61,688 bases of DNA, filler included, from Sphacelaria rigidula (GCA_964200075.2; 7 parts of 7 records of this genome joined end to end with filler, not necessarily neighbours in it); one strand, 5' to 3'. Positions 3,391 to 61,619 are shown, counted from the whole stretch's first letter. Notes: generated by a model from the sequence alone, not told the origin. A program made the numbers and translations.

Positions 3391-6300
3391 GGGGAGGGGG
3401 GGACTGGCGTACGTATTTGTTGCTTGCCTTAGTCGTGTGACCATTGACCACGAATCCCTTTCGACACGGAGCACCGTTTCTACGCCTGATAAAGACACCT
3501 CCGACATTTGGGTGCTCATTGCGTTTCTTTCATACATTACACAAAAAAACCTTTTACATATCTTATCCCTGTCCTGTTTCGCCGTCTGTGGTCGCCATCT
3601 ATCTCCAAGTATGGCCGTCGTTTTTTCGCTACTATCTAATGCATCAAAGAATTTCATGCCACCTTCGTTCAGGTCGCGCATTTCCCCCTTTAACACGTCC
3701 CGTTCCTCCTTGTAAAGTTCACATTCTGCCACTTTAGGAGTTGTGCTCTCTATTGCTTTGCCACAGGGCCGGTTCTGTGCGCCCACTTCCTCCTCCTCCC
3801 GACTACTGATACATATTTTTCTTCTTTCTGGCAGGTCCAGGTCCTTAAGCCGAAATCGCAGTTTCAGATTTTTCGCCGCGTCCATTGGGCCATGCAAATA
3901 TGCTTTTATCCCTATCCCCTCTCTCAACCCCAGTATATCTTCAGGTGATCTTCCTCGTCTACTTCGCGTCTGAGCGCTTATTATTTTCCTCTTATTTCTA
4001 TCATATCTCATACTCTTGTCTTGTACCCCGCATCTTCACCTACGGACAGTATTTTATCGTCGTTTCCTCCTATCTCCTTCTATACTCTGTCGACTTCTCT
4101 ATCCCACGTTATTCCAGCCTGCCCTTTCGTATTTTTCTTCCATACAGCCTTATCAAGTATAGCTGGCAATCTTTTTTTCTGCATGTTCTTCACGCTGAAT
4201 TGCCACCTCAATTTCCTCATGCCTCTGTTTTGAGTTGGTACATTCTCAACTCTGCTTACTCGTCGTTTGAGAGCATGTCAGTATTTTGCTAGCTGCTGCC
4301 ATCTGTACTGTGTCCAACTTCTTCACCAACTTCACGTTCCCCTCCCATACTTCTCCTGCATATTCCAGCTTTGGTACAATCACGTACATCAGGATACATA
4401 TCTTCACCCTACTGTCTAGATGCGAGTCTCTTGAGGATTACGTCCATACGTCCATACTGCCTATCTGTGGCTTACCCTTCTCTATTACTTTATTTATGTG
4501 TGCATCCCAAGAAAGAACAGTTGTTTTTAAATCTCTACGCCAAGGTATGTATACTGGTCCACGATCGGCAGTTCCTCTTCTCCCCACTTCCACTTGAACT
4601 CTACCGGATTTTTTTCATCTTTGTTACGGACAAGTACCGCGCATTTGTGAACGTTCGCTGTCACCCTCCATTTCCTAGTGTATTCTAGCGCCTCGTCTAC
4701 CTGTGTCTGCAATCCTTCCGGTGTTTCTTAAATCCCAACAAAATCATCTGCGAGCTTCAGACCTTATATTGCATCTTCACGCACTTTGACTCCTTGATTT
4801 TCTGTTTCTATTGCTAATATCAGGTCATCAATAAGTATAGTGGGAGGCTCTCAGTAGCATCGGTTGAATAGTGCCAACGACCTATATAATGCCGGTAAAA
4901 TCTCCGGGCACAGCCAGAGCTCGCAGTAGTGCCAACCAGCACTACTAACAGATAACCCTCAGTAGTGCCGGTTTGAACGGTTTTGCACCCTCAATAGTGC
5001 CGGTTCCGGACACACTCACGCACGCCTTACTCCCCACCAACCAAGCACCAGCAGGGGTGCAGCAGGGTACGTGCTGGTGCAGACCTTGCAACGTAGTGAC
5101 ACAACATGCCTTGTGCGGGAGGTGAACTGTGCCTCTCTCTACTTGTGTCGGTAGCCGGTAAGAAGTGAAAAGGGGCGTGGTTCATTCTTTCTCGCTCACT
5201 CCTTTTGGTGGGCGGTATACTCTTTTGTGAGTTTTTTTCCACACCAGATGCCGCACCTTCATAATTGTGTTGGGTGCAGATGTGTCCTTGTTTTTCTCAT
5301 CGGGAAGGTATTTTGGCATGAGCAACTTTTGTGGCCGTACTGCTGCTGTTGTGCTAGTAGGGAACGAAATGATCAACCTGTGGACAGGATCAATCAAGTT
5401 GAATGTGAAAAACAAAAAAACATCGGGTTTAGTTCTGCTATCCCGAAACCTTACGTGACGTATCCTATCGAAACCCCTCGAAACAGAATCCGCTTCCGTT
5501 TTGTGCTTCCGTTGGTCCCACGAAGGCCAAGCGCAGCACTGCACGAACGGACGGTCGTCAATAGTGCCAGAACCGGCACTACTGAGGTATTCAGAGCCCT
5601 CAATTGCACCTGTTTTGGCAATTTTCAGAGTAGTGCCGGTGTCCGTGGTGGGCACGCACCGGCACTACTCAGAGCCCCCCACTGTACCTTGGATAGAGTA
5701 GGTGATATCGTACATCCTTGTGCAACTCCTCGTAAGATATCAAAATATTTCGATATTTCCCCGTCTAGTTTCATGGCACTTTTGGCACATGCTGTCATCT
5801 TCTTCGCCACTCTCCACATATTTCCCCTGATTCCAGTTTCCGACAACTTTTTCTACAGCCCATTTATCCATACTGTGTCATACGCTTTTTGTACGTCCGG
5901 AAAGAAACAGTACGCTGTCAGCCCGGTGTCTTTCCTACCCTGAATAGTCTTACCTAGTGTGTATGCATGGTCTACGCAGCTGCGGTTTGGTCTAAATCCT
6001 GCTCGTCCCTCGCTGATTATCTCTTCCTTTTCTAGCATCGTTCCTACCCTATTGTTCAGAATCTTCAAGAATGTTTTCCCTACCGTGCTTCGCGTTATCC
6101 CTCTATAATTTCCTGCGTCAGCCTTGTCTCCGTTTTTGGAAAGGTTGACGACTACTTATTCTCTTCACCTTTTGGGTGTGTACTCGTTTTCCCATATCCA
6201 GTTGTACAGCATAACCATCATGGTGATCATTCCTTCCCCCCGTACTCCAGAAATTCTTTCACTTTTCCGTCTGCGGCTACTGATTTTCTATTTTTGAGTT

Positions 6301-8413
6301 TAGCTACGCACTCCTTTACTTCATCTCTGGTAAAGTCTCTCTGCAATTCTTTGGAGCCACTACCCTCCAGTTTTGACGTCTCTACATTTGCCTTTGCCCA
6401 CGTGTTTATTTCTTTTTCGAATCCTGTGTCGAACTTCATGTTAGGTTTTGGTGTTCCTAGTTTACGGTAGCGCTCGACTAGCACTTTTCTCTTTCCCTTC
6501 GAAATACTGGTCATTTTACCGTTCTCTGCCCGGAGTGTGGTTATCCCGTTGTCCATCTTTCCTGCCTGTTTTCCCGTTATCCTTTTTATTCCCTACCCAC
6601 ATTCGTTTCATCCCGCCATCGAAATCTTCATTTGTTTTATTCACTACAACTTCCCATACTCCCTTCTTTTTCTTCTGTATCATCTTCCTTACTTCCTTTC
6701 GAGCTTCAGTATACTCTTTCGATCCTGCCGCAGTTTGGCTCGATATGCATCTCGGGTGGGCCTCTCTCCTTACTCTCCCAGCCTCTTTTGCTTCCTCACC
6801 CCACCATTTTACTTACTGCTCTGTTGCATACGATCAGTTTCTTCCCTATGACTTTATTCTCAGTGTTCTGGACCAGCCGCTCCCATCCTTCTATGATCGT
6901 GGCTCCTGCCCGATTTCTTCCCATTTCGGTATTAACTGTACCTACGCGTTCCAACAGCTCGGAAAATTTCACTGCATTCTTGGCCATCTCTATTAGGAAT
7001 TCTTGCTGTTTTTCTTCCATATCTAGTTTATCGATTCTCCATAACTTTCTACCCCGCCTATGTTTTTCAGCTCTCTTCTGTTGGCTTTCTGTTTATATTA
7101 GGCAGTGATCTGTAGTTCTCACGTCCTCCGGGTTTACATGTACTTTCATTTCTTTACTATTCCCATGCTATACCACTATATAGTCATCAAGAGCGGAGCG
7201 TTCTCTTCCGTTTTCGCGGTTTCTGGTCCATGTCCAATGCCCCTCTGGCTCTACTACTCTACCGTTCAGCGTCTTCATCTCGTTATTCCCAGGAACTTCA
7301 GCATTCCTACCCCATTCGTGTTCCTCTTATCTTCCCCGTATTGCCCAATGATATCATCCGGTTGGCCTGCTTTTCCTATCGTTGCGTTCAGATCTCCCAC
7401 TAACATGACCTCCCCTTGCCTTTAATACTTTTGTACATATTTTGCTATCTCTCCAAACCTCCGCTGTATATCGTTCACCCTACTCTTCGATTCTGGCAGC
7501 ATGCAGATGTTCCCTACGCAAAACCCTTTCATTCCCCGCTCCCCTGGCACCCTTACCCATATGCTCTCATCGAATTTCGTGTCGTCGATCACATCGATGA
7601 TGTCACCCAGGTATTTCTTGACTAAAAATACTACTCCCCCCGCTCCCCTGCCTTGGAGGTTCTGTCCCCTCCGCTCTTTCTCTATCCATGCGTACTCTTT
7701 AACTTTGCGTTCGCCTCCTATTTCTCCAGTGACTCTTGAATTTCTACAATATCTAGGTCGCGCTTCCTTACTCGTTCGGCTATCTCCATTGTTCTGCGCT
7801 TGTCTGTGGCGAATCCACACACGTTCCACGATCCTATTCTCAACTTCCTTTCCGAATTATTATCTGCTCTCGTGCTGTCTACTGTTATCTCTCTGTCGCT
7901 TTTATTTCTTCTTTTCCTTGCTTGATAGTTTTTTCCGTTTCGGGTTTGGTCTCTGTCCATTTGCTCCGGGCCGCCCTGTCCCCTCCCCTCCCCCTTCCGG
8001 GCACTTACCTGTTCGTGCCTCTCTTTCCCGCCGTTTGCCCGTGCACTACGTCTTAGATTTGTTTTTCCGTCAGCAACGCACACTCTCCACCTTACCCCTC
8101 TAACCCATGCCGATACCTTACTTGTTTGTATCTTTTCCCATTTCTTGCTCGCGCTCTGTTCTAGTGTGACTCGGAAGTGCTCTCCTTCCCTTTCTACTTT
8201 TCCTGTTGCCAAGCAGTCTATTTCAACTCCATTGCATTTCCTTTCAAAGTCTATTCTCGTAATATCGCTACCGACTCCGAATACCAGCACTACTAGTACT
8301 TTACCCGTCCATTCTTTACTTCTCCATCCGCCCCTCGTCACCGTCTCTCTCTCTATCTCTTTCGAGAGTATCTCCGCTTGTTCGTTTTGACTATTGTGGG
8401 GGGATACAGTCAA
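3391..8413 (-). mobile_element. Near full-length degenerate LINE (APE endonuclease + RT + C-terminal CCHC-like knuckle; RTEX-like) with C-rich tail (family A)
   Basis: APE motif KLRIGSWNVCG...DIV.IQES (~7720-7850). RT motifs GFRPNRSCVDH, DVQKAYDTVW, RGVAQGCTISPTL and LADDFVG (~4735-6000). C-terminal PCG..E....C.LY (~3710-3780). The 3' end reads ...tacgtacgccagt followed by a C-rich run at ~3391-3402. Many stops and frameshifts. Confidence 0.9.
4838..5684. mobile_element. Tc1/mariner-type MITE inserted in the LINE RT domain
   Basis: TIRs (T/C)AGTGGG(A/G)GGCTCT(C/G)AGTAG. TA duplication at 4836-4837 and 5685-5686. Removing it restores RT 'SPTLSKV|LIDDLILAIE'. Subterminal AGTGCC(GGT) repeats at both ends. 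Confidence 0.9.
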
Positions 8414-8727
8414 GGTACTGGCATATCCGAATCCTAGTACTTGTTGGGGGTCAAGGGCCTTTCAGTTATTTTGCTGGCTCACCGACACTCAATAACGCCT
8501 CCAACACGGGCTCGTATCCTGAGGCCAACTTCAACACCCTTGACACAAGTACCCCACATTTGTACCAAGCGATCTTCATGGTAAAACCACCCAGGCGTCC
8601 CATGATCGTATCTTCTATCTTCTGCCCCGCTGCTGTACTAGTTACTTACCTCCAGGGGGGTCATTTTCACCGTGTAAGGTTCAAGGACGGCTTGCATAAC
8701 ACAAGGTCTTACTCATATCGGTATGTC

Positions 8728-11283: not shown

Positions 11284-13174
11284 ATGCCTATGCGCGATGT
11301 GGCTGTGTATGGTCCGTGTGAACCTGATGACTCGATGCCGTCCAAATCTGTTGTCCGCCAAGCGCAACGAAAAGACCTTGGGGTCGAAGATGCGGATGTG
11401 CAATATTTCGAGTCGGACGTTGGTACTGCTATTTTGGACAATGAAGGTCTGTTTTGTGTGCATGTGCGTGGCCTAAACGTTTTGTGGATTCCAAGTTCTG
11501 ACAAGCAGCTGCAGGTACGTCTGATGATTTGCGCGCACATGCACGACGCTGGGCATCGTGGTGTGGCTGCGACGCTCGTGTGCTTGCAAGAGGTTTGTGT
11601 CTGGCAGGGGATAGAAACTCATGTGCGCGACTTCGTCCGCCAGTGTCTTCACTGTGCTGACTCGAGGACGGGCGATGTTGTTGCCCGCCCGCTCGGCGAA
11701 ATGGCCCATGGGACCACGCCGAATGAAGTCGTTCATATTGGCTTCTCTTACGTAGGCGAGACTGGCCCGCTAGCTTCCCAAGGTTTGTCGGAGCATGCGG
11801 GGTGTCGATATATTCTGGTAATCATGGATGATTTTAGCAACTTCGTGACTCTGGAACCAATAGCAGTGTGTACTGCTGAATCGACCGCTGCGTCTTTGCT
11901 GAATTGATGCAAAACTTTGGGGGTGCCGCATGTGTGGGTGAGTGATACTGCCACGCATTTTAAGAATGCGATCTTGGCCCGGACACTTTCTACGATAGCC
12001 CCCCCCCAAAACCAGCTAAAAGAAAAATAAAAAAAATGGCCATAAAGCGCCTGATGTTCGGGTTCAGGCTGCATGAANNNNNNNNNNTGGGAATTCCCAG
12101 CTTCTCGTTGTGCTCGGCTTTTCCCATTTTGACTTACGTGAAGATTTTTCTTCCGAAAACCGTGCACTTTTGGGGGGGGGCTATCATAGAAAGTATCCCC
12201 GATTGCGAGAGGCTTTGCGCGTTGATCACCAGTCTGCGGTAGCGTATTCTCCGTGGTCTAACGGTACGTGCGAACGCATGGTCAAGGAAGTAGTTCGTGC
12301 TCTTCGACTTCTTCTTCTCGAGCAGCGTCGAAAGGTGACCGAGTGGGTGGACGTGTTGCCCGCTGTGCAATGGGCGCTAAATACAGCAAATCGCCGTCGG
12401 TACAATAGTACGCCGTATCACGTGATGTTTGGTCGTGCACCTCGGACGTCTTTCTCGGTGTTGGCGTCCTCATCGGCGGGAGACTGGAACTGTGATGTCT
12501 CAGACGATGCGCAACTGAAGCGTGCGTTGCAAGGAGTTTTGGAGTTGCAGGAAAATTTCCACGTTGAAGTGCGGGAGCGTGTTGCCGCTGGACGTGCGCG
12601 TAGACGTGAGGGGCCTTCGTCGAGGCTGGAATTGCCGAATTTTGAGGTAGACGACTATGTCTTGTATGCACGCGTGCGTCGTCCGGGTTTTACGCCAAAA
12701 TTAATGGCGACGTGGACTGGTCCGTGGAGAGTGGTTGGTGCTCATCACCCGCATGTGTATGCGATCCAAAACATTGTTTCAGGTCGTGCTCAGACCGCCC
12801 ATGTAGCTCGTCTGCGTTCTTATGCAGACTCACAGCTGAATGTAACGGCAGACGTGAAGGATGTGTTTCAGCACGCTTCAAACCAGTTACAATTTCAGAT
12901 GGCTGGGAATGTTCGCGTGGCAGAGGCGGAGGATCGTCCGTTGATCGTATTGGTCGACAGGGTAGGTTTTGAAGTCGAGGAGCGTACGTGGGAACCTTTA
13001 AAAAATATTTTGGAGGCCGCTCCGGAATTTCTCAAAAAAGAGTCGCGTAAGGTGCGAGTGACTCGTCCCATTGCTGCTCGGATCACGCGTGAGTTTGAGA
13101 TTCAATTGTTACTTGCTCAATCGTTCTGGCGTTATTTTTCTGGGTGTCAAGCTTGTTGCTCGATTCTCGTCTAA
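11284..13174 (+). pseudogene. Gypsy integrase + chromodomain (interrupted by a stop and a MITE)
   Basis: ORFs 11284..11907 and 12110..13174 carry the integrase Zn-binding, rve core and chromo-like motifs. Confidence 0.88.
11982..12197. mobile_element. MITE with GACAC termini and 4-bp TSD (CCCG)
   Basis: TIR GACACTTTCTACGATAGCCCCCCCCCAAAA / TTTTGGGGGGGGCTATCATAGAAAGTATC. CCCG at 11978-11981 and 12198-12201. Removing it restores integrase 'AILA-RLREAL'. Confidence 0.9.
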
Positions 13175-13559: not shown

Positions 13560-13590
<31 letters not shown>

Positions 13591-17654: not shown

Positions 17655-18863
17655 CAGTTCGCAAGTCGGGTTGCCCGCTTTAGCCTCTATTCAGAGTTAA
17701 ACCTCAATTCGCACACTTTGCTGTTAGATGGGGTTTTCTTGGGGCATAGAGGGTGTGTATCCGCGGCCGTCTATCACAGGGCGTTGGCGAAGGCATATGC
17801 CATGTCGTTGACGTCTATTACTGCGGGGAGTTGGTGGCATTCGGTAGCTTAGCGACAATGACCTTTGGAACAGTCGCCCTCCAGCGTCGGTCGGATGCGA
17901 GGGCGTTGCGATGGAAGCGTACACCCCTATCCCCGCCTCTCGGTTTCGGTTGGCGGTTGGGGGCGTTCCGTTCGTGGAGACGGATGGTTGCTGAGACCAG
18001 ATGATGGTCTGACTTCATCTTGGGGTGCACGGCGACATCTCAGACGAGTCTGCGGTCTTTCTGACGTACATGTAGTCCAGGTGACAGCGGTGTTCGACTT
18101 TCGCCCCCGCATATGTGTATGCGGTCGAGCTTTCCCTGCGAATTGGTGTGCGAACAAATGTGTTGGTGATGGCCATATTTTGTCCCGCAGCGCATTTCAG
18201 TAGGCATCTACCGTTATCATTTCGAGTGTCTCTGCCATACTCTCCCAATTCCCGAACGTCGTCCATGCCTCCTCCTTCTCTCTTCCCGGTACGAGCATTG
18301 GCATCTATCATGAGTACTAGGTGCTCGTTGGTGGGCACTTCAGCGATACAACTACTGAGGGTTTTCCAGAACTTGTTCTTTTCATCATCTTGTACTGCCT
18401 CAGTAGAAGCATACGCTACGATGAAGGTTGCTGCAACTTTATGCGTGAGAGCTACTCGTGCCTTGAGGATCCTGGCACTCACGTGTTCAGGGGCGATGAC
18501 TTCTGGGTCCAGCGTGCTGGCGATAGACTCCTTAATGGCGAGGCCGACTCCGAGCGTTCCCGGTGTCCCCCCGTCCCCATGGCAGTGGCCGCTACAGTGA
18601 ATGATGTGTCCTGCTGCCAGTGCGTGGAAGATTGTTCGTCCATGTTGACGGTTTTCTCGAAGGGCGACGAAATCACAGTCGCATTTGGACGCAAAACGTA
18701 GCAGGTTCTCGGCGTGGCCTGTGCCCTTGTAACCCCTCTCGGTCATGGTGCATACGTTCCAAGTGGCCACAACCAGCTCTTTGGATCGAGACTCCGTCCT
18801 CGCGATGGTGCGACTAGCGCAAGCCTGAGGCTTGGCTGCTCGCCGAATTGGTATTTCCCTCAT
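17655..18863 (-). mobile_element. RTE-like LINE 5' part (APE endonuclease)
   Basis: ORF 18015..18863: VATWNV, GVGLAIK, IVAYAST, DANARTG, NDNGR.LL, ITNTF, LDYM. Confidence 0.9.
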
Positions 18864-19204
18864 TCTCTTCCTTCGTTCTGCTACGTCCTTTTCCTGTTGG
18901 AGATCCTCCAGTAGGGAGTTTCAAAACGGACGGGATGTTGGGACACGTTTGGAAGATCCTCTGGAGGGTTTCCGAGGCTAGCTGAATGGTCGCGTGTGCT
19001 GTCCTGTATTGCCAACATATAGGGTTTGTATAGCAGAGCCTGTTGGAAAGAAATCCTCGTTTTGCCCACTTTCCAAACGATAATTGTTTTAGCAGCCTTT
19101 GCTCTACAAGTCTCATATATTGTGCTGTATTGACAGCATATGGGATCTGTAGAGCAGAGGCTCTTCTTCGAAATAAATCCTCGCCAATTTTCAAAATGAC
19201 GCAA

Positions 19205-21685
19205 AACGATGCGATGAAGACCGGGTGGCTTGCCTCGTGCGTCGTAGCTTTGATGGCGTTTGGTTTAGTGGTGAGGAACATTCAGCCTGTGTGGGTGAGT
19301 CCGGCGATGGCGGTGCCGAAGAGGGACATATTCCGGTTGGTCAGCGACTGTCAGGCGGTGATCGCGCAAGTGGAGCAGTCTCCGGGTTGATGACGAGCCA
19401 AGAAGACATGCGGGAGTTGCTGGGAGTCCAATGCCTCGGTAACTCGGACCTGCTACAGGGGTATTGGCAAATGCTTCTGGCGCCGGGGGCTCAGGAAATC
19501 TTCACAATCGTCACGCCTGACGAGTTGTTCGCGCTTTCTCTTGTCCCTCAGGGCGTGTTGATCGTCACGGTGTATTTCCAAGGTGTGCTGACTGATATTT
19601 TGCGAGATCTAAGCTGTCGAGTGTGGATGGATGACGCTTCCTGTTCGATGAAATATTTGGCCGCTTGGAGAGGGTCGGTCTATTTGTCGCTGCGCATGAG
19701 TGCAACGGTTGCGAAGTCCGCAACCCCTCGGACAGGCAGGATCCGTGTCTGGTGCATTTCCTACTGCTGCGACGGCTGCAACAGCGCCGTCTGCACATTC
19801 GGCGCCGTGGTCTGGGTGTACCGCCGATTTTCAATTATCGATGCCCAGTACTGGAGCATAGCCCTGGCGTCAGGTGACTCTCGGTACCGTCCAGGGTTCT
19901 TGGGTAGGTGTGGTACCTGTCCATCGCAAGGTAGAATGTTTACGCGCAGATTTTCCCTCACCTGGTTCCGTAGGTATTTGACGAAATTCTTGGTAGCTTG
20001 GAGAGTGTTGGTCTGTTCGATTGGAGAGTGTTGGTCTGTTTGTCGCTGCGCATAAGTGCACCTTTTTGCGCGCCAAGTGGTTTTATGTGGTAAGGTGTAA
20101 TCCAAGGGTACCGTTTTGCATGAGCCCGTCCGCATCCAGGGTTTGAGCAATATGCGACGTCCTCAAAGAGCTAGTGAGCTGAGGCAGTTTTGCAGGCGGT
20201 GAATTAGTTGCGGACTTCGCTCCCGTACATGGCGGAAGTAGTTGCGCCGCTTCGTGTGTTTGTGAAACAACTTATGGTCGGGGCTTCGCGTCGGACCAAG
20301 CGGGTGGCGCGTAATCGTATCATTCCGGAAGGCGCTTGGACGGTGGGTCGTGTGCGGGCATGGCGTGCTGCGCAAGATTTGGTGCCGCGCGCGGTTCCGC
20401 TGTATCATCCTCGTCCAGGGTGCGTTGTTCTGATGTGTCCAGATGCTTCGGATTCCCACCGGGGTAGTTTTTTAACACAAGTACCTGTCGCCGAGTTCAG
20501 AAGTGACATTGCGCTCGAAAACATGTCACACGAACCGTTGGCTTTTCTGAGTGATAGCTTCAAGGGTTCACAGTTGCGGTGGGCGACAGTGGACAAAGAA
20601 GGTTTTGCTGTAGTCAATACATTCCGAAGACTAGAGCACTTGCGTCGGGGTGGCGTTCGCATTCACCGATCATCGCAATCCGAAATATATTTTCAACCCC
20701 GAAAAGTGTGTCACATCGATGACGAAGGCCATGGGACAACGGCTTGAACGTCGGAAAGGAGTGCTCGGCAAATATCGGTATGCCATTGAACACATCCCTG
20801 GAGAGCGTAATTGTTAGGGAGTTTTGTTGTCTCGCTGGGTGAAGGTTCCTACCGTGCCTGTTCGTCCTGTTGTCGTGTACAGCCCGTGTGATGCCAATGA
20901 TTCGCTGCCCTCGTTAGATGTCATTCGTACCGCGCAGCGCAAAATCAGTCGACGATGGTGTTCATTCTTTTCCTTCGACTTTAGGTCAAGCTGCGTTGGC
21001 TAACGATGGTTTGTTTCGCGTGCGTGTTGGCAGTAGAGATGTTCTGTGAATTCCGTCGGATGATAAGACTCTACAAACTTGCTTGATGGTGTACGCTCAC
21101 ATGCGATCGGCTGGTCACCGTGGGGGGGGGGCGTACTCCTTTGTTGCTTGCCTTAGTCGTGTGACCATTGACACCATGGGGGGGCGCCGACTCTGTTTCG
21201 TTTGAAAGAATACTGTGTGTGGCCTCACATGGATTCCAACTTTCGCGAGTTCGTTCGCCAGTGCTTGCATCGTGTAGACGCTCGTGCTGGTGCGATTGTA
21301 CCTCGTCCGTATGGCGATACTGTGCATGGTAGTGCGCCAGGGGAAGTTGTTAACTTTGAGTTTCTGTACGTCGGAAGTAGCGAACCTGAAAGTGCTAATA
21401 GTTTGCCCGATGATGAGGATGATTTTCGGTATGTTTTGGTTATCATGAATGATTTCTCCAATTTCGCCTTGTCGGAACCAACGGAGGCTTGCACCGCCGA
21501 GGTTACGGCTAAGCACTTGCTCCATTGATGCAAGACTTTGGGGGTGCCGCGTGTGCGGGTTAGTGATACCGCCACGCACTTCAAGAATCGAGTGATCGCG
21601 CAGCTGAGCGACGCGCTCAAGGTGCAACACCAACTTGCTGTTGCGTATACCCCTTGGTCGAATGGAACTTGTGAACGCATGATGA
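19205..21685 (+). mobile_element. Degenerate Ty3/Gypsy pol (RT, RNase H, integrase)
   Basis: DLLQGYWQM, VPQG, VWMDD, PDASD, WATVDKEGFAVV, and integrase AYTPWSNGTCERM. Related to the element at 8828-13441. Confidence 0.9.
21122..21171 (-). mobile_element. Extremely 5'-truncated family-A retrocopy with poly(C) tail and TSD
   Basis: Matches 3407-3449. Flanked by caccgtggggggg (21116-21128) and caccatggggggg (21172-21184) inside the integrase GHRG codons. Confidence 0.88.
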
Positions 21686-23000
21686 AATTTCACATCGCCT
21701 TTGATCACCAAATTACCTTGAATCGGATCTCCGTCGTCCAACCCACCATTTTCCAGGTGACAACTCGCTCCATCGCTGAGGAAATTGAATTTTATCACCT
21801 CCTCCGGGCGAGTACCATGCATCTTATCCCCACTATGCGCCATATCCTCGTGGGGAGGGGGAATGTGCGCCCCCACCTTGGATTCGCTCACCCGTCGGGA
21901 GGAGAACGTTTCCGGCATTCCCATCACCGCTCTCTCCAAGCTCGCATGCAAACTGCAGTATAGTAACCCAGACGCCACCAAAACTGCAATGCACGACGCT
22001 AACCACCCGGCTTTCATTGGATCGTTGCAATGGGGCTGGACCTTCGCAGCCGTCGCCTGTGGCTGGGGCGGCACCCTCATAGGCTGTACGGCTCCACTCT
22101 CAGGAGCTTCCTCTTCCCTTTCACCTGTATCCTTCTCGCTGTCACAATGAAACGACCACACAGGGATGGTCACCCGCCTAGCCGAAAGTAACTGGGGTTG
22201 TTCACACCGGTCTGCACCGGCACAGCACGCGGGTGTAATTTTTCCAAAGCCAGCGGATACAAATCTACCCCGAGTTCCTTCATAGTCGCCATGGTAAACA
22301 ACGCCACGTCATCGTTGTCAGGCCTGACCGCGAAAGTGATTGGCGACATCTCCATAGCCCCCCACGGCGTTCGCACGCTCACATCAATAGGCACCGTTTA
22401 ATGAGAAACAGTCACGGACGCACCCGTGGCGCTCTGTGCCATTTGCGGTCCATTTTCAAATAATGGTAGCTGGAGCTGGGCGCACCCGAACTGTGAAGAC
22501 ATCTGTTGTTGTAGCAACCCCCCACACTTACGGATGTGAGTGCTGATCCAGAGTCGAGAAAAACGCGAGCCATGAATGAACCAACAGAACCGGGTATAGA
22601 TAGATCGGCGTGTAAGCATTCTGCGCTGCGGTCAACAGGCACCACACCTGCCGAAGAAAAACTCTGGTTAGTGCCTAGAGTCACTTGACGCCGGGGCAGC
22701 ACTTCAGCACTTGACATCGGTGCTTTTATATTCGTCGCAACAGTGAAAGATACACCAGACACGAATCCTGCCGGGCCTATGGGTTGCGAGCCTTCCGCTC
22801 CCGCACTCCCCACCGAAGTATTACCTCCTCCCACATATGTTAGCCGCCCCGACACAGACGAACCTAGACATCTAGAGTCATCACTTGAGAACGCCCTTGA
22901 GGGTACAGTAGCGGCGGAATTACAATTCTCCGTCGCTTGATTTCGTTTTTGACCCCTGCCTTTGCACCCGCATCTCTGGTTGCTCCGACCTTGTCCGCCA
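21686..23000 (-). mobile_element. Degenerate, internally deleted Ty3/Gypsy (protease, RT start, integrase start) in opposite orientation
   Basis: VFLDSGSALT protease motif; 'DPMKAGWLASC' RT start shared with the other two copies; 'HGTRPEEVIKFNFL' integrase piece. Confidence 0.8.
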
Positions 23001-25115: not shown

Positions 25116-25702
25116 ATGGCGGACAATGAGGGTATTCGAGGGGTACTGACGCTCTGTTCAAACTTCGATAGCAAGGACAAATCGAGCTTCCGGAAATATG
25201 AAGACAAACTCTGGGTGATCCTGCCCCTCCACCACAATGAGCTACAGAAGGAAAGTAATGAGCGCCAGAATGTTGGAGGTGTCTCTATTAGGAGTAGGAA
25301 CGGTGCTCCGTCTCGAAAGGGATGCGTGGTCAATGGTCAAATGACTAAGGCAAGCAACAAATGAGTACGCCCCCCCCCCCCACCACAATGCAGCCGCAGA
25401 AATTCTGCTAGGGCAGCGAAGACCCAGATCCACCGTAATCAATGATGACCTAACCACCCTGTGGTACGACAACTTCAGTGGCGTGGGATCGTTTAGACAA
25501 TTATCTGTTTAGTGTTCTGTTTTATAGCACGAAAACATCAGCAAACAATACCGTCAGACATCATATGGGGAAAACTCAACAGGATGGGGTCGGGGACGGA
25601 CAAGCAGCGCGGGTAGCGCTCCACAACAGATATGACGGCAACAGCAATGAGGCACGAAGGGAGTTCCATGACAAACTTTACACTACACACGTGGGCAAAT
25701 AG
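25116..25702 (+). pseudogene. Copia-like gag remnant
   Basis: 'WDRLDNYLFSVLFYST...A...V.........DGQAA..AL.NRYD' resembles the Retrotran_gag_2 pattern. Interrupted by a C-tailed insertion. Confidence 0.65.
25240..25381 (+). mobile_element. 5'-truncated family-A retrocopy with poly(C) tail and TSD
   Basis: Ends gagtacg plus ~12 C. TSD ccaccacaatg at 25229-25239 and 25380-25390. Confidence 0.9.
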
Positions 25703-41126: not shown

Positions 41127-41653
41127 CTGGTTTCATCGTACGGTTGCGTTTTTTTGAGGTGATCCAGCATCAATGGGAGTGGACCACACAGCGAAATTAC
41201 GTGGAGGTGAACGAGTCAAATGTATGTGGGGGGGGGGAGGGGGGGGAGGGGGTGAGGTAGTTCAACAGTAGACAGGCATCACACATGGAGTATGGGGGTC
41301 GATATTCATGCCTGCACTTTTACAGGTGACTTCATTATCACCACGTTGGGAACTACGAAGCCTTGGGGGGGGAAGTGTTTTCAGGAGTATCCGTTTTCTT
41401 TCGGGAAAAGCGAACGCCTTGACCGACTTCGAACAATACGCTGCGTAAATTTCCCAAATGCCCCGCTGGGTGAAAATGATTCCCCCAACGAAAGCTTGAA
41501 TTACCGCACAAGGAAAGTAGAAGAGATCGGAAGAAGATTTCGGCGAGAGGAGGAAAACGGATAAGTTCAGGATCAATCTTTCATCACCTCGCACAATCTT
41601 GCCCTCAATCCTTCAACCCTAGAGATGACGGTTAATCATAAGTCTTTTTTTTT

Positions 41654-41840
41654 GGGGGGGAGGGGTGTACTCATGATCATGCATGTCATAGTCACATGCA
41701 TAGGGGGGAAAGGGGGGGGCGGAGGGGGTGTACTCATGATCTTGCCCCGTAGTCATTAGACCGTCGACATCACATATCTCCAAAGCAGGGACGGAGCCCA
41801 CCGTAATTTTTAAGGACGCACGGGGGGGGGCGGAGGGGGG
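41654..41840 (-). mobile_element. Two stacked family-B C-tailed insertions; the longer one has a G-rich TSD
   Basis: gggtgtactcatgatc at ~41663 and ~41726; ggggggggcggaggggg at ~41712-41728 and ~41823-41839. Confidence 0.75.
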
Positions 41841-45485: not shown

Positions 45486-45821
45486 GACACTTTCGACGAT
45501 AGCCCCCCCCCAAAAAGTGCATGGTTTTGGGAGGGAAAATCTTCACGTAAATCGAAATGGGAAAGACCGAGCACAACGAGCAGCTGGGAATTCCCACGTT
45601 AGGTTCGTTCTAGCCAATGTCGCCAATATGAGGCGCCTCATGCCGCCTGAACCCAAAAAGTAGGCGCTGTATGGCCATTTTTTTCGTGACACTCTTGAGC
45701 TGGTTTGGGGCTGTACTCATGATCATGCTTGCCATAGTCATAAGACCATTGACCTCGCATCCCTACAAAGCCGGGACGGAGCACGCCGGGTTTTCACCGG
45801 ACCAGGCTCGTAGAAAGTGTT
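45486..45821. mobile_element. Second copy of the GACAC MITE (4-bp TSD CTTC) with a family-B insertion in its right TIR
   Basis: Reverse-complement homolog of 11982-12197; CTTC at 45482-45485 and 45822-45825; insert ~45712-45809 at the TIR G-run. Confidence 0.88.
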
Positions 45822-46685
45822 CTTCGTTGCGCACCTTGAGCTTCCTACCCTGGCTAGTTTTGGCTAATTTCCAAGGGTCGGACAAATCAATGATTCGTCT
45901 GGAAATTACTTGATTTTAGTGCAATTGATTCGAATCGTACGAATCAATCCCTAGGCTTTGTTTCCAGCGATGCAACGCAGTTACACGCAGCTCAAACACG
46001 TGGAATGCCGCAAAAGTTGCGTGGATATCCCTTGGACCAGCGGTCAACTTTTTTTTTCTCTTTCGGGCAATCAGGCCGAAGAAATCGTGGATTTGGTGAT
46101 ATTGAGTCGTGATGATTCGTCCTCACCATGCCAATTTTCATGTGCTTTTTTCTTTTTTTTCTGACACGATCTCGGACCGAGCCACCGTTCCTTGCCTTGA
46201 CAGCATCGACGGTTAATGATTTCCCCAATTCTTCTCATCGGACGGTAGGATCTTTTGTGCCAAGAAATACGCTGCACTCGGACTTGACACGCCGAACCGC
46301 TATTGGTATGGCACAACCATTTGCCTCACTCTCCACCAGCATGTTGAACCTCATCGCTTGGATATGCATAGAGCGCCTCGTACAGTAAGTAGCACACCAC
46401 ACACCAACGTACAACAGAAAAGGAAGAAGAGAAAATAAACAAGAAGCGTCGAAGACCATAACAACCACAACGTGAAAAAAAAAAAGAAGCAAACATGTGA
46501 AGAAAAAAAGCATTCCATTAAACGGTATCAGTTAACCAACCCCCTGGCACGATTTTTTTATTATTATAACGTTGCACGGTTCCTCACTAAAAGACAGAAT
46601 ACTACGGGGTTATAACAAGACGTGAGCATAATATATGTGCATATATGTGAAGTAGGGGAAAGATACGAGGCAAAAGGAAACTCAC

Positions 46686-47969: not shown

Positions 47970-48250
47970 GAGGGGAGGGGGACATGAGGGGGAGGGGGGG
48001 GGGGTACTCATTTGTTGCTTGCCTTAGCTCGTTTGATCATTGATCACGCATCCCTTCCGAGACGGAGAAAGGAATGAGGGGGGGGTACTCATTTGTTGCT
48101 TGCCTTAGCTCGTTTGACCACACGCATCCCTTCCGAGACGGGGAAAGGACACGAGGGGGGGGGTATTCATATCTTGCTTGCCTTAGCTCGTTTGACCATG
48201 GATCATGCATCCCTTTCGAGACGGAGAAAGGACACGAGGGGGGGGGGGGG
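47970..48250 (-). repeat. Three tandem ~80-bp copies of the family-A tail separated by G-runs
   Basis: Unit: gga(c)a(c/t)gag-Gn-tactcatttgttgcttgccttagctcgtttgacc...cgagacggagaaa. Confidence 0.85.
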
Positions 48251-48412
48251 GAAAAACAAGTTTTGCTTGCAAAAGTTGTTGAACAATTGACAACACAACC
48301 TTTTCAAAAAGAAAAACGCTTACTACTCCCNNNNNNNNNNTCGCTGTGTGTTGGGTGCTGTGTTGTCGTTCAGGGGGTGGTGGCGCGCGTGGCGGGAGGT
48401 GCGCGCGGAGAC

Positions 48413-49806
48413 GGGGTGGGGGGGGGGGGGGGGGGGGGGGGGGATAATCATGTCTTGCTTGCCATAGTTGTTCGACCATTGACCACGCATCCCTTTCGAG
48501 ACGGAGCATCGTTCCTACTCCCGATTGAGACACCTCCAACATTTGCGCGCTCTCCAACGTACGTTTTTTCCATACATTACACATCCCCTCCTGCTTCGCC
48601 GTCTGCGGCCACCATTCATCTCCTAGCATAGCGATCGTTCCACCCCATGTACCAAACGAATTCATTCCACCTTCGTTTACTTCCCGCGTGTCTCCCTCTC
48701 ACGCGCCCCATTCCCTTTTGTGAGTGATGCTACGGTAGGGGTGCACAAATATTTTCCGAGGTTAGAATTGTTGGGAGCCCTTCATCTCATCCAAAGCACG
48801 ACTCGTGAACTATGTGAAAGTTCGCCAGGATTAATATTTCAACGTGCTAGGGATATCCCCGACTGAATTTCCGAGCAGGGATGCCCTGATCTACATTCTT
48901 GTGCATCTAGAATCTTTAGAAGCCCCTGAACCAGACACTATTTCGCGCAAAAAGTGCACTCCTACCGTAGCATTGCTATTGTATAGTTCACATCCTGCCA
49001 CTATATGAGTTGTACTCCCCGTTGCTTCGCAAAAGGGGAAATTCTGTGCACCCACCTCCTCTACGCGACTACTGGTATACCTCCCTCTTTTTATCTGGCG
49101 GGTCCAGGTCACCCACCCGGAATCATCATTTCAATCTTGTCGCGTAGTCCATTGGGCCGTGCAGAGATGTTTTCATTAATATCTCTTATGTCAACCGTGT
49201 ATCCTCAGGTCTCCTTGTCGTCCACTTTCCGTTTTAGCGTTCGTTTCTCTTCATTTCCATCATGTCTCTTACTTCTGTCTTGTACCCCCCACATCCATGC
49301 ATTTGGTCTTGGTTTCTTCGTATTTCCTTCCATTCTCGACGACGCTATCCCACGTCATTACAGCTTGCTCTTACGTCACCTTTTCCCACACGGCCCCATC
49401 AACCATGGCTGGCATCTCTTTCTGAACATGTCCCTTGCGTTATATTGTCATTTCAATTTTCTCATGCCTAATTGCTTCTAGTGGGTAAGTTCCCAATTCT
49501 GCTCTCAATCCCGTAATACTCGTCATTTTTTAGCATCCAAGTGTTTCCTTAGTTAGCTGATGTCGCCTGTACTGTTTCCAGCTGCTTCGCCAGCTCCGCG
49601 TTCCCTTCCCATACTTCTCGTGTATATTCTAGCTTCGGCACAATCACATTCATCAGATTGCGTTGTTAATCGCAGTATCGAGGTGTCAGTCTTTTAAACA
49701 TCACGTCCATCTTGACTATCTGTACATTTCCCTTCCCAATCAACCTGATCACGTGTGCATCCCAAGAACAGCTCTTTCTTAAATCTCTACGCCAAGGTAT
49801 GTATAC
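48413..49806 (-). mobile_element. 5'-truncated family-A LINE (~1.1 kb) with long poly(C) tail
   Basis: Homologous to 3400-4552; G-run at 48418-48443; split by the MITE at 48722-48978. Confidence 0.85.
48722..48978. mobile_element. MITE with 4-bp TSD (TTGT), possibly Academ-like
   Basis: TIR ATGCTACGGTAGG(G/A)GTGCAC; TTGT at 48718-48721 and 48979-48982; LINE colinearity is restored on removal. Confidence 0.8.
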
Positions 49807-50141
49807 GAATCTAGGATCGGTGATTTTCGGCCAACAGGTAAAATATTTCTTCGGAGTCAAAAAGGGGCGGCTGGGGATGGAGAATTGCCGATCCTAGACT
49901 TTATTTTACCCCGAAGAAGACTTGCCTGTGTAATGGGCTACAGGAGTGATCGACAGTACATGGGCAAATGATTTCTTACTGCATGTCCCCTCAAGGGGTG
50001 CGGTGCGGTCTCCAGGAAACAAGAAAAAATAAGCCGCCCCGCTGGTGTTTTCATGAGGCACCGAGTCCATAGGTACGGGTCGTTATATAATAATTAAAAT
50101 GAAATCAGCTATTTTTTTTCGTTGTTTTCCGTGATCCTCGA

Positions 50142-52962: not shown

Positions 52963-55829
52963 TGTAGAGTAAATAAAGAAATCAAACAACGACGACGACC
53001 ACATTGAACAAGTAAATGCCGCGCAGTTGCTGGCCATGCTGTTTGTTCCTGATCCATCCGGGACCCCCTCCTACTGTTGCTGTTGCTAGGAAGGAACACG
53101 TACACAGAATTATGCTCGTCGTAAACCTAACCTCGACGACACACCGGGCATCGTTCTCGACGACGCACCGGATTAATATCGCCGTGGTATATCGCCGTGG
53201 TGCTCCCTTCAACTACAAAATCATTTCCGAGGAAAAATACTTTTGCGCCTGCAGGATACAATTTCACGTGTCGTTCATCCTCAACAAAAAGCACCATCCT
53301 CAACATAGATGATCCGCTGTTAAAAGAGAAATGCGACTTCAGCCCCATGTTAGTGTTCAACCTCAAAATTTAAAATCGGCTGTTAAATTAACTTTGCGAA
53401 ATTGGATCAATCCGGAATCAAATACCAACATGCGATTGTTTGAAATAGCGGTGGTCTCATTTGCAACGCTGGCGTCCAACGCATAAACCAGCAAAACATT
53501 CGTGGATTGCAGTCTCGTCATTCTGCGCGAGGCAGATTTTGAGCGTGCTGAATGTACGAAGACACTCGTGGCACATTGTTACGAGTATCGCGGGTGATTT
53601 TGTAGCAGCCATTGTTCAGAGTCCGTTGAACAAACTTAGCGAGGGGCATAATGGTCGCAGAGCTGACGACTCCAAATCAGTGTTCCGCAACGTTACTCGT
53701 ATCAACCCTTCGACCGCTAGAGTAGGATTTGTGATGAATCGGCATCATTTACGCCAAGCAATGAGGTAAAATAATGCTGTTTCAATAGGTCACATACCCC
53801 GACGACGGAAGGATTAATATAATGGGCCCGTCGCAAAACGCAGCAGGCAAACACACGACACAGGAATAGGAGCATCGATACACACGCATCGTTTACCGAG
53901 CGACTGCTTGTGTTTCGTATATCAATAACAAAACAGAAGTGTTTTGATACACAGGACATCAGCATTTACTTGCTTCTTTTCTCCAACTCTTCGCACCAAA
54001 AACACTTGAAATATTCATAAAGGTCGTGCATAGATTTCGCACCAGTCCGACATGTTAGTGTTTTATCCATTGATGGGACATGACTGCTGCCGAGATAGCC
54101 CCCCCACAACCGGCCAAAAAAGTGCACGAGGGCGATTATAATAAATGCCGTGAGAGCTGGTTTTGTGCTGCACGACGCGACTCATTTGGGCGTTATGGCT
54201 GATTCCGGACTGCTACACCCCTTTCATACGAGCGAAATTGCTGCAACGAGCCCAATAGTGGGATCGCAGCCGGTTCGTCAGACGGTCTCCGATGCACTTT
54301 TTGTGGGGAGGCCATCTCGGCATCAGTCGCATATAAAATCAATGCCCTCCTATTAAAAGCCCACACTCAATTAAATCAAATGTCGTGTCATCTTACGACA
54401 CCGGGGTGTGTTATGGCTCATTTCAAAATACCCCTTCAAGTCGTCGTTGAAAACAGCAACTCTGTTCGAACGCGCTTGGTACCAGTACGATACACTCACT
54501 CAAACTGCTTGACCCTATATTCACCCGAATACAAGCGCACCTCGAGTGTGACACCCATAAGGTCCCTGTTTTTGGTGGAATCAAACAGCCCCACCCTATC
54601 GTAGAACCTCTCTGCTGGACACCCAATATGGCGAGAATGTTGATCGCTAGTTGTTGACATGTGTCCAGGCGATCGAACCTGTTACCGCGGGGGTGGAACA
54701 TCCGGGTCTTCAAATGATTAAACATGATCCTAAAGTCACCACCCCGCCGATCAATGAGTTGAGCCGAGCAAGAACACAAGCGGTCAACACGAAGCCCAGG
54801 GACCTGAAATAATAATAGTAAGACAAAGAACTGCCTGCGGTCAAAGTACAAACGAAAAAACAATGCACAAGAAGACAGAAAGATTCAACTTCAGCTCGAC
54901 ACTCCAACATGATGAGGCCTACACAGCTTATTTTTTCTGTTACTCATGATCCTCTACATACATGGCGGTCAAGTTCATCGACGAAATTCTTGCCAACATT
55001 GTCCGATGGGGGCCACGCGTGTCTTCCAACAGTCTATGGCGACACGGCTGCCCAAACAGAGGGGTTCGTAGCCCCGCACGTTAGTGGGTCGAAACGCGAA
55101 CTGAAAAACAAAAGTCCGTGGCCCCGCACGCTAGTAGGTCAAAACGCGAAACGATGCCTTCGTGCGGGAGGCATCCCGCACAGCCACGGACTCGTGGCAT
55201 TTTTCCCCAACGACACGCACTAAAGTATCGGGGAGGGGTCACCTTCAACGAATACCGAACCACCGAAAAACACAGCGACCATCCATGAACAGCAAATACA
55301 TGCGCGGTCACACGAACTGATCAAACCGACCAACCGCAAGTGCGATAAGTACATCCTTGCACAGTAACATCCTGCTACATGATACTCGCACTAGCTCGCA
55401 ACACAATCTGAAATCAAACAAACGGCATGGATGCCTCCATTACACCCGTTGAAATAAAAAGAGGGGAAAGTCCTGAGATTCCCCACGTAAAAAATAGATT
55501 GAGAAAAGACAAGAGGACGCAAGGGTTACTAACAACTAGGATACCGAAGACGGGGACACCCCTCTGCTTCGAATTACTGCCAAATAAAAAAAACATACAT
55601 GCGGGAAATCAGTTCACGCCACGACGCTACCGTAGTCACGCGGGTGGGGAAGAATAAAAAAAACAGAAGCAGAAAACAGCACTCCCTTGTAGGTGACAAG
55701 AAATTCGCCAGCTGATTCACAGGTCAGCGAGAAAGAGCTGCCACACACTTTTCCAATTGGTCGAAAAAAACTGTACCACTATTCCTCTCGTGGAAGAAAT
55801 CTTGGTCGTCGGCTGACGTTATCCGTGAT

Positions 55830-59537: not shown

Positions 59538-59590
59538 GGGAAGGGAAGGGAAGGGAAGGGAAGGGAAGAGAAGGGAAGAGAAGGGAAGGA
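59538..59590. repeat. (GGGAA)n microsatellite
   Basis: Direct reading. Confidence 0.9.
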
Positions 59591-61279
59591 GAGGGGGGGT
59601 GTCGCGGGGCAGGGCGGGTCGAGGGTAAGGTACTCGAATTACATGCGCAGACATGTGACGACATCATGATATGTGGAATACGTCCTGAGTATCATTCCCG
59701 TAACTCGAGCATCAACCCATACAACATTCCTCGGTGGTTGACGAAACCAACTTCTTCGTATGTTCCAAAACACGGGGGGACGGGGGACTGCAATGTAAGC
59801 CAACACACTGGTATTTACTAGCAACGAATTCATACACACCGCATACGTCACCCAAATGGGTTCGCAGGACAGCCTCTGCGACTGAGAGCGAGAGAGAGAG
59901 GTTGGAGCTCCGCTCGCTCTGATTGTACCACGTATAGAGACGTGTGAACAAGTATGGTGACTCGGATTGGCCACGCTGTTTCGTGCCACACTTTCTGGAA
60001 TAATCCAAGAAGAAGGGTTGACACGGGTGTTGGTATGGATCATAGGATTCGCGGGTCGTTGACCACTACTACTCAAACACGATCCCGAGATCTGAATAGA
60101 AATCTCCTTTTCTTGTCTTGTTGATGATAGCCGTGAAAAAACAGAGAAGAAAAAAAAAGGATATGGGATTAAGATTAATTTCGAAGAGGTGAGTTCAGCT
60201 GATCAAAAATATGCCCAGGTACCCAGCAGTGTTCCAACACCATCATAATGCACATGCACAAGATGTATCACCAACCCTCATGTGGCATGCCACAACCAAG
60301 GAGCACCAGGACCAAAAACCTTCCACACGGGGGAGTAGATATGTTGGAGAATAATCTGAATACGGTACATGGTGTCGCTGCAGGGACAAACGAAGTAACC
60401 CAAGGCTGAAATATCGGACAATATTCACATGCAAGTTGCGACAGAAATATATCTTCAGGCATCAACATTTTTCGATTTCTGGACGACTGGTGATGGTACC
60501 AACACTCTTCAAATGAAAGAAAAAGGAGAAATCGGGAAGTTGTCATCGACGGTTGTGGACAAGAAGAAATCAGTACACCCCACAGAGCAAAGCACTGTCG
60601 TGAAAGAGATGTCAAGAGCTCAGTACACATAAAAAAAAGTACTGTGTGGGTGGTGTATACGGGAAGTCTCTTCCACCACGCGGTGCAAAACACATGCAGT
60701 TTTTTTCGTCTCAAGTAGGTAGCTCGTAGAACGATGGCAGGGACAGCAACAGCAAAAACAACCCCAACTAAGTTTGAAAAAGAAAAACGTACAGGACAAG
60801 AGTCCAAGTACGAGACTAGTGCCACGAACGGGGGTCCAAAATACAGACTCGTGAGGGAGAAAGAGTTAGTGAAGCCACAATAGTGGCTTTTCGTACTGAA
60901 AAATGACTCATGTGTAGAAATGTCGATGCGTTGTGTACTGAACGATCGAACCGTCTAGGTTTCCATATAAACAAGTTATGGGTGGCAGCTTCTACCTACT
61001 GTATATCGATATTGGCGTCCCCGCGTACTGAAAAGTGTTTTTAAAATTACGTGTTGTTCCGAAAACCCTACTGGCGTTTCTCAGACGTACGTCAAAACCT
61101 CGTCTACTCTCCGCGACATTATACCTCGTACCGTGCACCTTCAGAGGTCACGGATCTCATGCAATGGTCTTTCTGAGGTGGAGTCCAAATGAAGTAAGGT
61201 AGACGTCATTCTGCAATCATTTTTTTCAATACTTGTAGTCACATGGCCGACAATTGAACAGAGAAGCCCCCCCCGCCGC

Positions 61280-61619
61280 CGAAAAGGGATAGAGAGCAGA
61301 AGTCATATAGTGGCACAATGTGAACTATACAAGGAGGAACGGGACGTGCTAGAGAGAGAAATGCCGAACGCGAACGAAGGTGGCATGAAATCGTTTGATG
61401 CCTTAGACAGTAGAGAGATAGATGGTGGCCAGAAACGGCGAAACAGGACGGGAATAAGAAATGTAAAAGTTGTTTGTGTAATGTATGGAAGAAACGTCAT
61501 GAGCGCCGGAATGTTGAAGGTGTCTCTATTAGGAAAGGAACGGTGCTCCGTCTCGGAAGGGATGCGTGGTCAATGGTCACACGACCAAAGCAAGCAAAAA
61601 TGAGTACACCCCCCCCCCC
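61280..61619 (+). mobile_element. 5'-truncated family-A LINE with poly(C) tail
   Basis: Homologous to 3400-3760; ends gagtaca plus ~12 C; preceded by a C8-gc run at 61267-61276 echoing the 3' flank. Confidence 0.85.

Follow-up and report, generated by a model that had tools for sequence, protein, structure and literature searches.

A LINE family of Sphacelaria rigidula with C-run ends and signs of priming at G-runs

Introduction

Pairing of the nicked target with the 3' end of the element RNA is considered a requirement for the integration of long interspersed nuclear elements (LINEs), the retrotransposons without long terminal repeats (LTRs), and almost all of the evidence for such pairing comes from A/T pairs, as in L1 with its nick site TTTT^A, or from short tandem repeats. 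In this work we describe a LINE family of the alga Sphacelaria rigidula (GCA_964200075.2) the copies of which end in a conserved terminus followed by a run of C, and which appears to start reverse transcription at nicked G-runs. The stretch of DNA analysed (the window) is 61,688 nucleotides long and is composed of seven pieces of 8,727 bases with N spacers between them and three N10 gaps inside pieces. A first-pass annotation of the window had proposed that these elements are a C/G mirror of L1, in which a nicked G-run primes on a C-tailed RNA.

Among the LINE tails described in PMC3747384 are (TAA)n, (TTG)n and (TGTAA)n, the last of these with template slippage. The elements which that account classes as "stringent-type" carry such simple repeats, namely (TGTAA)n in UnaL2, (TAA)n in the I factor and (TTG)n in the RTE clade, and need a conserved 3' module in cis (PMC3747384). 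The same source describes plant short interspersed nuclear elements (SINEs) of the p-SINE and Au-like groups which end in poly(T) and are thought to need a partner LINE recognising that tail. LINEs have been reported from Ectocarpus (PMC3145265). In line with the first-pass annotation, no LINE with a C tail was found described in the literature searched, a search in which the bracketed spelling "poly(C)" could not be used and for which Repbase, Dfam and the supplements of brown-alga papers lay outside the scope. A single-C repeat tail would thus be a departure from the described LINE tails, with the real uncertainty that database curators may already know it.

Results

The conserved 3' terminus and the copies in the window

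The motif GAGTACRCCCC, with at most one mismatch, matches the window 14 times against an expectation of 1.46 (largest shuffle 7; none of 100 shuffles reached 14). Ten of these matches are true 3' ends of the family, those at 6175, 17917 and 60571 are unrelated and the one at 46818 is uncertain. Reading around all candidates gave 14 family 3' ends with the terminus ...ATGAGTAC followed by G or A, which fall into two subtypes: subtype A (n = 10), ending ...GGCAAGCAACAAATGAGTACG or ...GGTCAATGGTCAAAYGACTAAGGCAAGCAACAAATGAGTACG, at 3406, 21128, 25373, 27238, 47999, 48080, 48157, 48240, 48440 and 61612, and subtype B (n = 4), ending ...GCAAGCATGATCATGAGTACA or ...GGTCAATGGTCTTATGACTATGGCAAGCATGATCATGAGTACA, at 32764, 41662, 41725 and 45708. 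C-rich sequence follows the terminus in all 14 and an A-run follows directly in none, just as the first-pass annotation had it when describing copies that almost always end in GAGTAC(G/A) or a variant plus a C-run and never in poly(A). The C-run is unbroken over 7-26 bases in 10 of the 14, and its length across the copies ranges from 4 to 26. In the 11 ends matched by a regular expression, C makes up 6-12 of the 12 bases from the second to the thirteenth past the terminus, as opposed to 2-4 of 12 in three false matches of the same expression. An A-run is found beyond the C-run at two termini, 41662 and the uncertain 46818.

The ends listed in the first-pass annotation, at 3391, 21122, 32762, 41654, 41712, 47990, 48078, 48155 and 48418 on the minus strand and at 25370, 27235 and 61608 on the plus strand, all hold as family ends. 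Those at 47990, 48078 and 48155 were a special case, since together with 48238 they share their 5' start and 11-12 extra bases and thus form one tandem array, not independent insertions. With the four array ends counted as one, there are 11 independent loci, which lie on six of the seven pieces, while the second piece carries no copies, again as first described. No second LINE subfamily with a visible 3' end was found within the window.

Outside the window, a marine metagenome contig (L001) carries GAGTACG + C8 followed by unique sequence, and L081, a contig which sits in a bacterial bin holding this single copy of the element, carries GAGTACG + C13. An exact 22-mer scan for further copies gave one match in genome_contigs (L081) and none in viral_contigs. 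The poly(A) or A-rich tail that is a feature of the L1 clade is therefore absent from the 14 window termini and from L001 and L081, all of which are followed by C. L081 also has, on its reverse strand at ~520-600, a diverged terminal module, ...GGTCAATGGCAAGGCATTTGTTTCATGAGTTC, which precedes the intact LINE in the opposite orientation and has no C-run directly after it.

The copies in the window are listed below, with target site duplications abbreviated as TSDs; identities are to L001 or to the related protein P0002.

3396-8335, minus strand: near full-length degenerate LINE copy (tblastn, amino acids (aa) 3-1360 of P0002; blastn, 76% to L001) with frameshifts and stops; decayed tail GCCAGT + C7 + TCCCC at the low-coordinate end; 5' untranslated region (UTR) homology continues to the piece end at 8727
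21116-21184, minus strand: 5'-truncated copy of ~45 bases (21132-21172); the G10 tail is plus-strand 21122-21131; TSD 13 bp
25229-25390, plus strand: young 5'-truncated copy (~25240-25369), 96.8% to L001; C12 tail at 25370-25381
27137-27260, plus strand: 5'-truncated copy (27160-27234), inserted in the C-run ending another repeat unit
32764-32886, minus strand: subtype-B unit of ~120 bases, ending GAGTACA + CCCCTCC
34787-35208, plus strand: LINE 3' fragment (34787-35135), breaking off 38 bases before the normal end, plus a subtype-B unit
41654-41839, minus strand: two subtype-B ends, a unit at 41725-41803 and a ~37-base copy at 41666-41700 which ends CCCCTC7, then A9
45486-45830, minus strand: inverted-repeat element, similar to miniature inverted-repeat transposable elements (MITE-like), with a subtype-B insertion (45708-45810), compared with its paralogue at 11985-12200
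11985-12200, plus strand: uninterrupted MITE-like paralogue with arms ...CTACGATAG C9 AAAA and TTTT G9 CTATCATAG...
47994-48305, minus strand: tandem array of four units of ~80 bases, each a terminal module plus a C-run (C11, C8, C9, C14)
48418-49825, minus strand: older 5'-truncated LINE copy of 1.4 kb, 74-77% to L001; its C26 tail (plus-strand G26, 48418-48443) is the longest in the window
61267-61621, plus strand: 5'-truncated copy (61283-61608) with a C11 tail

The copy at 34787-35208 is cut by the end of its piece, and its reading frame stops just inside the subtype-B part; the joint may be an insertion of a B unit, a template-switch chimera, or the mark of a LINE subfamily that carries a second terminal module as its 3' UTR. 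In the near full-length copy, ~850 extra bases interrupt the reverse transcriptase (RT) from 4838/4839 to 5685 (minus strand), and within them 5208-5685 shows a weak match (27%) to the RT of P0120, a distant relative; the stretch could have arisen by internal duplication or be a separate fragment. The MITE-like element measures ~230-300 bases, with inverted arms carrying C9 and G9 (TTTT G9 CTATCRT...), and a third, partial arm is located at 54085-54110.

The protein and the coding 3' end

The window sequence 3403-8726 (minus strand), translated with X at stops, matches RVT_1 with E 1.2e-16, and P0002 (1,360 aa) does so with 9.8e-31, placing the RT at aa 740-989. N-terminal to the RT, P0002 has an endonuclease of the apurinic/apyrimidinic (AP) type at aa 170-414 (Exo_endo_phos 3.4e-12, Exo_endo_phos_2 3.3e-07), and a Cys/His motif near aa 1243-1259 is invariant across an alignment of 15 sequences. 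The earlier attribution of an endonuclease and an RT to the element is borne out by these domains, the window copy aligning over aa 3-1360. In L081 an uninterrupted open reading frame (ORF) covers aa 1-1360 in one high-scoring segment pair with 88% identity, starting 1,067 bases into the contig. It is a single ORF, the upstream 5' UTR of at least 385 bases not having been searched for a small one. Homology of this 5' UTR to the window extends at least 385 bases upstream (to 8725 on the window side), which gives the element a length of at least 4.46 kb.

The copies have no terminal repeats and start at variable points (L001 positions 12, 2615, 3389, 3427, 3659, 3708 and 3736), and all of those which reach the 3' end stop at ~3784 of L001. 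With an RT, an AP-type endonuclease, a fixed 3' end, variable 5' truncation and TSDs, the element is a non-LTR retrotransposon (LINE) of the AP-endonuclease type. A protein search returned 515 LINE proteins at E <= 1e-10; the named relatives are all Ectocarpus sp. proteins with 42-74% identity, which makes a brown alga the probable host, and the matches in the ESM Atlas fall in eukaryotic clusters only. Scores against structures in PDB are best, narrowly, for human L1 ORF2p (E 6.6e-21, compared with 8.8e-20 for R2) and do not separate the clades.

The C-termini of P0001, P0002, P0003 and P0042, ...RNGAPSRKGCVVNGQMTKASNK, are the translation of the conserved nucleotide 3' end. The stop lies 5 nt ahead of the C-run (AAC AAA TGA GTACG, then the C-run), which makes the conserved 3' end part of the coding sequence and leaves the element in effect without a 3' UTR. 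We use the term terminal module for the last 73 nt, that is the 78-nt unit minus its C-run, which is coding in subtype A and kept as non-coding sequence in subtype B, the ~120-base units of which retain it even though the frame stops upstream of it. The proteins of a large group of distant relatives, down to ~33% identity (within P0005-P0063), close with the motif ...G(C)VVNG..A.A or G(C)VVNG..AMAA, which follows a low-complexity linker that varies. In the family studied the stop adjoins the 3' end, and the motif could therefore represent an RNA signal in translated form. The retention of these nucleotides as non-coding sequence in subtype B, taken with the conserved C-terminal motif of the distant relatives, suggests that the terminal nucleotides have a role at the RNA or DNA level in addition to their coding role. 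A closing stem GUGCUC/GAGUAC with two small hairpins was predicted in two of four folds of the module, and the module boundary at ~25303 coincides with the 5' half of this possible stem, which is only a lead; the predicted folds of the 3' ends of distant relatives gave no common architecture.

Abundance in public contigs

Logan contigs of four public runs (X1, X2, X3 and X6) were aligned to 17655-26381 at a likeness of at least 85%. X2 includes contigs identical to the window and hence comes from the same species, perhaps even from the sample that was sequenced; RNA ends are not visible in data of this kind. The number of contigs extending past the C12 tail at 25381 was 1378, 1494, 703 and 95, respectively. 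Their consensus continues with 13-20 further C in X1-X3 and 9 in X6, after which agreement is lost (0.38-0.40), indicating that the retrotransposed unit ends in the C-run with unique flanks and that no downstream sequence is shared as a longer unit would require. Many of the tails exceed ~25 C. Summed depth in the bin 25221-25511 reached 3.9M, 7.4M, 1.3M and 0.2M, compared with ~1e2-1e5 in most other bins, a difference of 10 to 1000 times. Many contigs contain joints going back by 70-80 bases, from 25375-25381 to 25302-25306; the joint from 25381 to 25304 alone was seen in 35, 45, 10 and 2 contigs, and a long C-run stands ahead of 25304 in 349 contigs of X1 and 383 of X2. These back-joints and preceding C-runs point to tandem arrays of the 78-nt module with its C-run throughout the genome, like the one at 47994-48305.

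Target sites

Six insertions in the window have a readable target. Five are flanked by TSDs of 10-19 bp, a normal size for LINEs, and one caused a small target deletion; for two of the six there is a paralogous empty site. The nick lies 3' of a G on the priming strand at all six (G^C, G^A, G^C, G^T and the like), and the target contains a G-run of at least seven in four of them. At three sites the C-run of the copy exceeds that of the target, with 12 versus 2, 10 versus 7 and 11 versus 8.

The largest excess is that of the copy at 25229-25390, which has an exact 11-bp TSD, CCACCACAATG, at 25229-25239 and 25380-25390. The target reads CCCCT ahead of the TSD, so that only CC could be shared with the tail, yet the copy carries C12 and at least 10 C must be new. 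No empty site for it was present among the joints listed in the public contigs. At 21116-21184 the TSD is CACC(G/A)T+G7 on the plus strand, with G10 on the tail side; 2, 2, 2 and 0 contigs of X1, X2, X3 and X6 skip 21116-21171 and show a paralogous empty site with one CACCAT+G7. The insertion at 61267-61621 has the TSD C8GC at 61267-61276 and 61612-61621 and C11 on the tail side. At 27137-27260 the TSD is about CCTCCCCCC(CC)G(G)CGCG, and the sequence from terminus to TSD is only CCGCCA. The TSDs at 21116/21172, 25229/25380 and 41712/41823 that the first-pass annotation had reported are real, as are its differences in run length, G10 versus G7 and C12 versus CCCCTCC. Searches for TSDs were unsuccessful for the copies 48418-49825, 32764-32886 and 3396-8335, the 5' end of the last lying beyond its piece.

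Other features of the window

C/G runs also end repeats of other kinds, e.g., ...GGAGACAGCATA + C23 at 26805, or stand without a recognisable partner. Such runs may be targets, tails of other elements, or insertions of a tail only. Long runs with no recognised element occur at 80 (C20), 32506 (G18, beside a C10), 44188 (G21) and 52790 (C14). At 26729-27145 there are three copies of a repeat unit of ~160 bases ending ...CACGGTAGGAGACAGSAWA, each followed by C-rich sequence (C23, C19 or C8) and two of them then by a LINE 3' fragment; a similar end, ...CACAGCAA + C9, is present at 17471. This repeat may be a second C-tailed retroposon family.

The region 21115-23080 (minus strand), host of the LINE insertion at 21116-21171, has two long ORFs (397 and 222 aa) resembling Gag-protease of an LTR retroelement, with a zinc knuckle (zf-CCHC, E 8e-4) and a DSGS protease-like motif; it is highly repeated in the public runs (depth 1e4-1e5), and the 397-aa ORF has no match to a Pfam RT. 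At 17970-20055 there are weak LINE-like matches on opposite strands, an endonuclease at 18015-18920 (minus strand, E 0.004) and an RT at 19177-20055 (plus strand, E 0.0055), both below the Pfam cut-offs, and the region is 22-23% identical to P0002/P0003. A pair of long ORFs, of 543 and 617 aa, occupies 37347-41132 on the minus strand; the first has a DUSP domain (E 4.6e-9) and is probably a ubiquitin-specific protease gene, while the second matches no Pfam family.

Discussion

The observations are best explained, in our view with better than even probability though well short of certainty, by a single very abundant LINE family with an ORF of ~1,360 aa (N-terminal region, AP endonuclease, RT and C-terminal Cys/His motif) that ends in a C-run and integrates by target-primed reverse transcription from G. 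The endonuclease would nick the target strand just 3' of a G-run, and the exposed G end would pair with the 3'-terminal C-run of the template RNA, where reverse transcription would start; the outcome would be 5'-truncated copies flanked by duplications of 10-19 bp that begin with a C/G run. The C-run would be a templated simple-repeat tail with a unit of one base, copied from the source copy and altered in length by slippage. The terminal module seems to be the part recognised by the enzyme, and is amplified alone as tandem arrays. Priming of reverse transcription by a G-run on a C-ended template, as the first-pass annotation proposed, is well supported by the sequence at the insertion sites: the position of the nick, the G-runs in the targets and the excess of C at 21116, 25229 and 61267, which need C beyond what the target supplies, speak for it.

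The comparison to L1 stands in part only. The two share an AP-type endonuclease with an RT, 5' truncation, TSDs (10-19 bp here), insertion into the tails of earlier copies and a 3' homopolymer that matches the complementary homopolymer at the nick (here G^N). They differ in that the tail of the algal element is C and not A, that intact relatives seem to have one ORF only and have no 3' UTR, the stop being 5 nt before the tail, and that a terminal module is held in common with short elements, which is the behaviour described as "stringent" in PMC3747384. The tail of L1 comes from polyadenylation, while that of the algal element is probably templated, and the added tail implied by the notion of a mirror image is thus probably wrong. 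A templated simple-repeat tail is most likely for three reasons. The distant relatives end in (TC)n, (CT)n or C-rich sequence, which an enzyme adding a homopolymer could not make; the intact L081 carries a C13 of its own; and templated repeat tails with slippage are a known pattern of LINEs other than L1 in the account of PMC3747384. The relatives in question have a simple repeat straight after the stop, (TC)n in L005 and L006 (with a spacer of 8-11 nt), (CT)n in L034 and a C-rich run in L016. They share the protein alignment, the endonuclease and RT and a pyrimidine repeat after a short spacer with the element studied, and differ from it in being 24-28% identical to P0002 (32% for L034, over a shorter stretch) and in having dinucleotide tails.

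With the stringent-type LINEs the algal element has in common a conserved 3' module, which recurs in short non-autonomous units (subtype B and the 78-nt units), and a simple-repeat tail of variable length, its unit being one base, that could pair with the target; slippage has been proposed for tails of this type (PMC3747384). It is set apart from them by the single-C unit, by a module that lies inside the coding sequence and by a marked preference for homopolymer targets. The poly(T) of the plant SINEs is another example of a retroposon tail made of a homopolymer other than A, in this case of a different base, and there the partner LINE is unidentified, whereas for the alga the autonomous element is in hand.

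Several observations weigh against this interpretation. Among the public runs found to contain the sequence none is recorded as RNA, X6 being a putative RNA run at most. The excess of at least 10 C at 25229-25390 is a strong case, but the other two differences are of three bases, which is within assembly error, homopolymer lengths being error-prone in assemblies. At 41725-41839 the C-rich TSD of 17-19 bp (C5-6 TCCG C8-9) accounts for the run with no extra C, and the unit at 45708-45810 sits exactly in the C9 arm of the MITE-like element, where C4 remains and ~8-11 target bases have been lost. At these two sites the C-rich stretch does not exceed that of the target, and a tail is not needed to explain them, although they are also what is expected if the primer pairs right beside the terminus. 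Of the two paralogous empty sites, that of 21116 has G7 against G10 in the filled copy, and that of 45708 has C9 against the C4 left. C/G runs of at least seven are ~8 times over-represented in the window (49 versus 5.9 expected in 200 first-order Markov simulations, the largest of which gave 13; for A/T runs the figures are 66 and 12.8), and while the C/G runs of at least 10 number 19, a terminus of the family precedes just 6 of them, perhaps 7. Most of the long runs being without a terminus, the genome evidently makes or keeps such runs apart from the module. The relatives ending in (TC)n are only 27-28% identical, and the predicted fold energies of the terminal module are no better than those of shuffles (z -0.2 to -1.3).

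These same sites raise the question of whether the element merely targets G-runs, its RNA ending in GAGUAC(G/A) with no C tail, so that every C-run is a duplicated target. The copy at 41725, where the whole C-rich stretch is TSD and falls short of the 5' copy by one or two C, the C4 left of a C9 target at 45708, the bare CCGCCA between terminus and TSD at 27160 and the plentiful supply of C/G runs as targets would all fit. We nevertheless consider it unlikely, because the target at 25229-25390 offered only CC, its CCCCTCC being broken by a T, and in this copy with its exact TSD 12 uninterrupted C nonetheless follow the terminus, with C10 against C7 and C11 against C8 at two further copies. The genome-wide consensus moreover adds 9-20 C beyond that 12-C run, in a window where 30 of the 49 runs are shorter than 10, and the copy at 48418 has a C26. 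Only slightly less improbable is that the run is real but untemplated, G being added to the nicked end by the RT or a host enzyme, or C to the RNA after transcription. Several reverse transcriptases do add untemplated bases, tail lengths vary from 4 to 26 between copies without relation to copy age, and at 25229-25390 at least 10 new C arose where the target offered only GG as primer. A G-run of at least seven in four of six targets is expected if primer and template pair, and unneeded for untemplated addition; the (TC)n of the relatives makes the tails of the group look templated, and we know of no tailing enzyme that makes (TC)n, nor, to our knowledge, is there a eukaryotic activity adding poly(C) to RNAs of this kind. 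The C13 of the intact L081 likewise argues for a template.

That the runs are sequencing or assembly errors, for instance poly-G from two-colour chemistry, can be practically discounted. Homopolymer lengths are indeed unreliable in short-read assemblies and the three N10 gaps of the window lie near such runs, but the C/G runs lie within contigs, read in either orientation, and without exception 3' of the ORF. Three public runs from two studies show them, each in hundreds to thousands of contigs, as do two unrelated assemblies (L001 and L081), and the TSD copies match them at the opposite end of the insertion.

Beyond the templated C-run that we favour, a more far-reaching version is conceivable but rather doubtful. 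In it the RNA would have a true oligo(C) 3' end, the endonuclease and RT would be specialised to nicking and priming at G-runs, and the new, often longer C/G runs left by each insertion would serve as preferred targets in a self-seeding loop. Since the stop lies inside the module, 5 nt from the tail, the new protein would be set free right at the RNA end that it has to bind, as a device for cis-preference. If true, the loop would explain the excess of C/G homopolymers, the insertions into earlier tails and the genome-wide arrays of the 78-nt module.

A family that uses C/G would be a natural second test of the relative parts played by primer-template pairing and by the endonuclease in setting the insertion site. 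Such a family would also demonstrate that neither poly(A) nor a 3' UTR of any length is indispensable to a LINE. For the alga it offers an explanation for the many G/C homopolymers of the genome, runs which matter for assembly quality and for the formation of G-quadruplexes and i-motifs. Annotation software that relies on a poly(A) or A-rich tail will overlook these very abundant elements and their short derivatives or set their boundaries wrongly.

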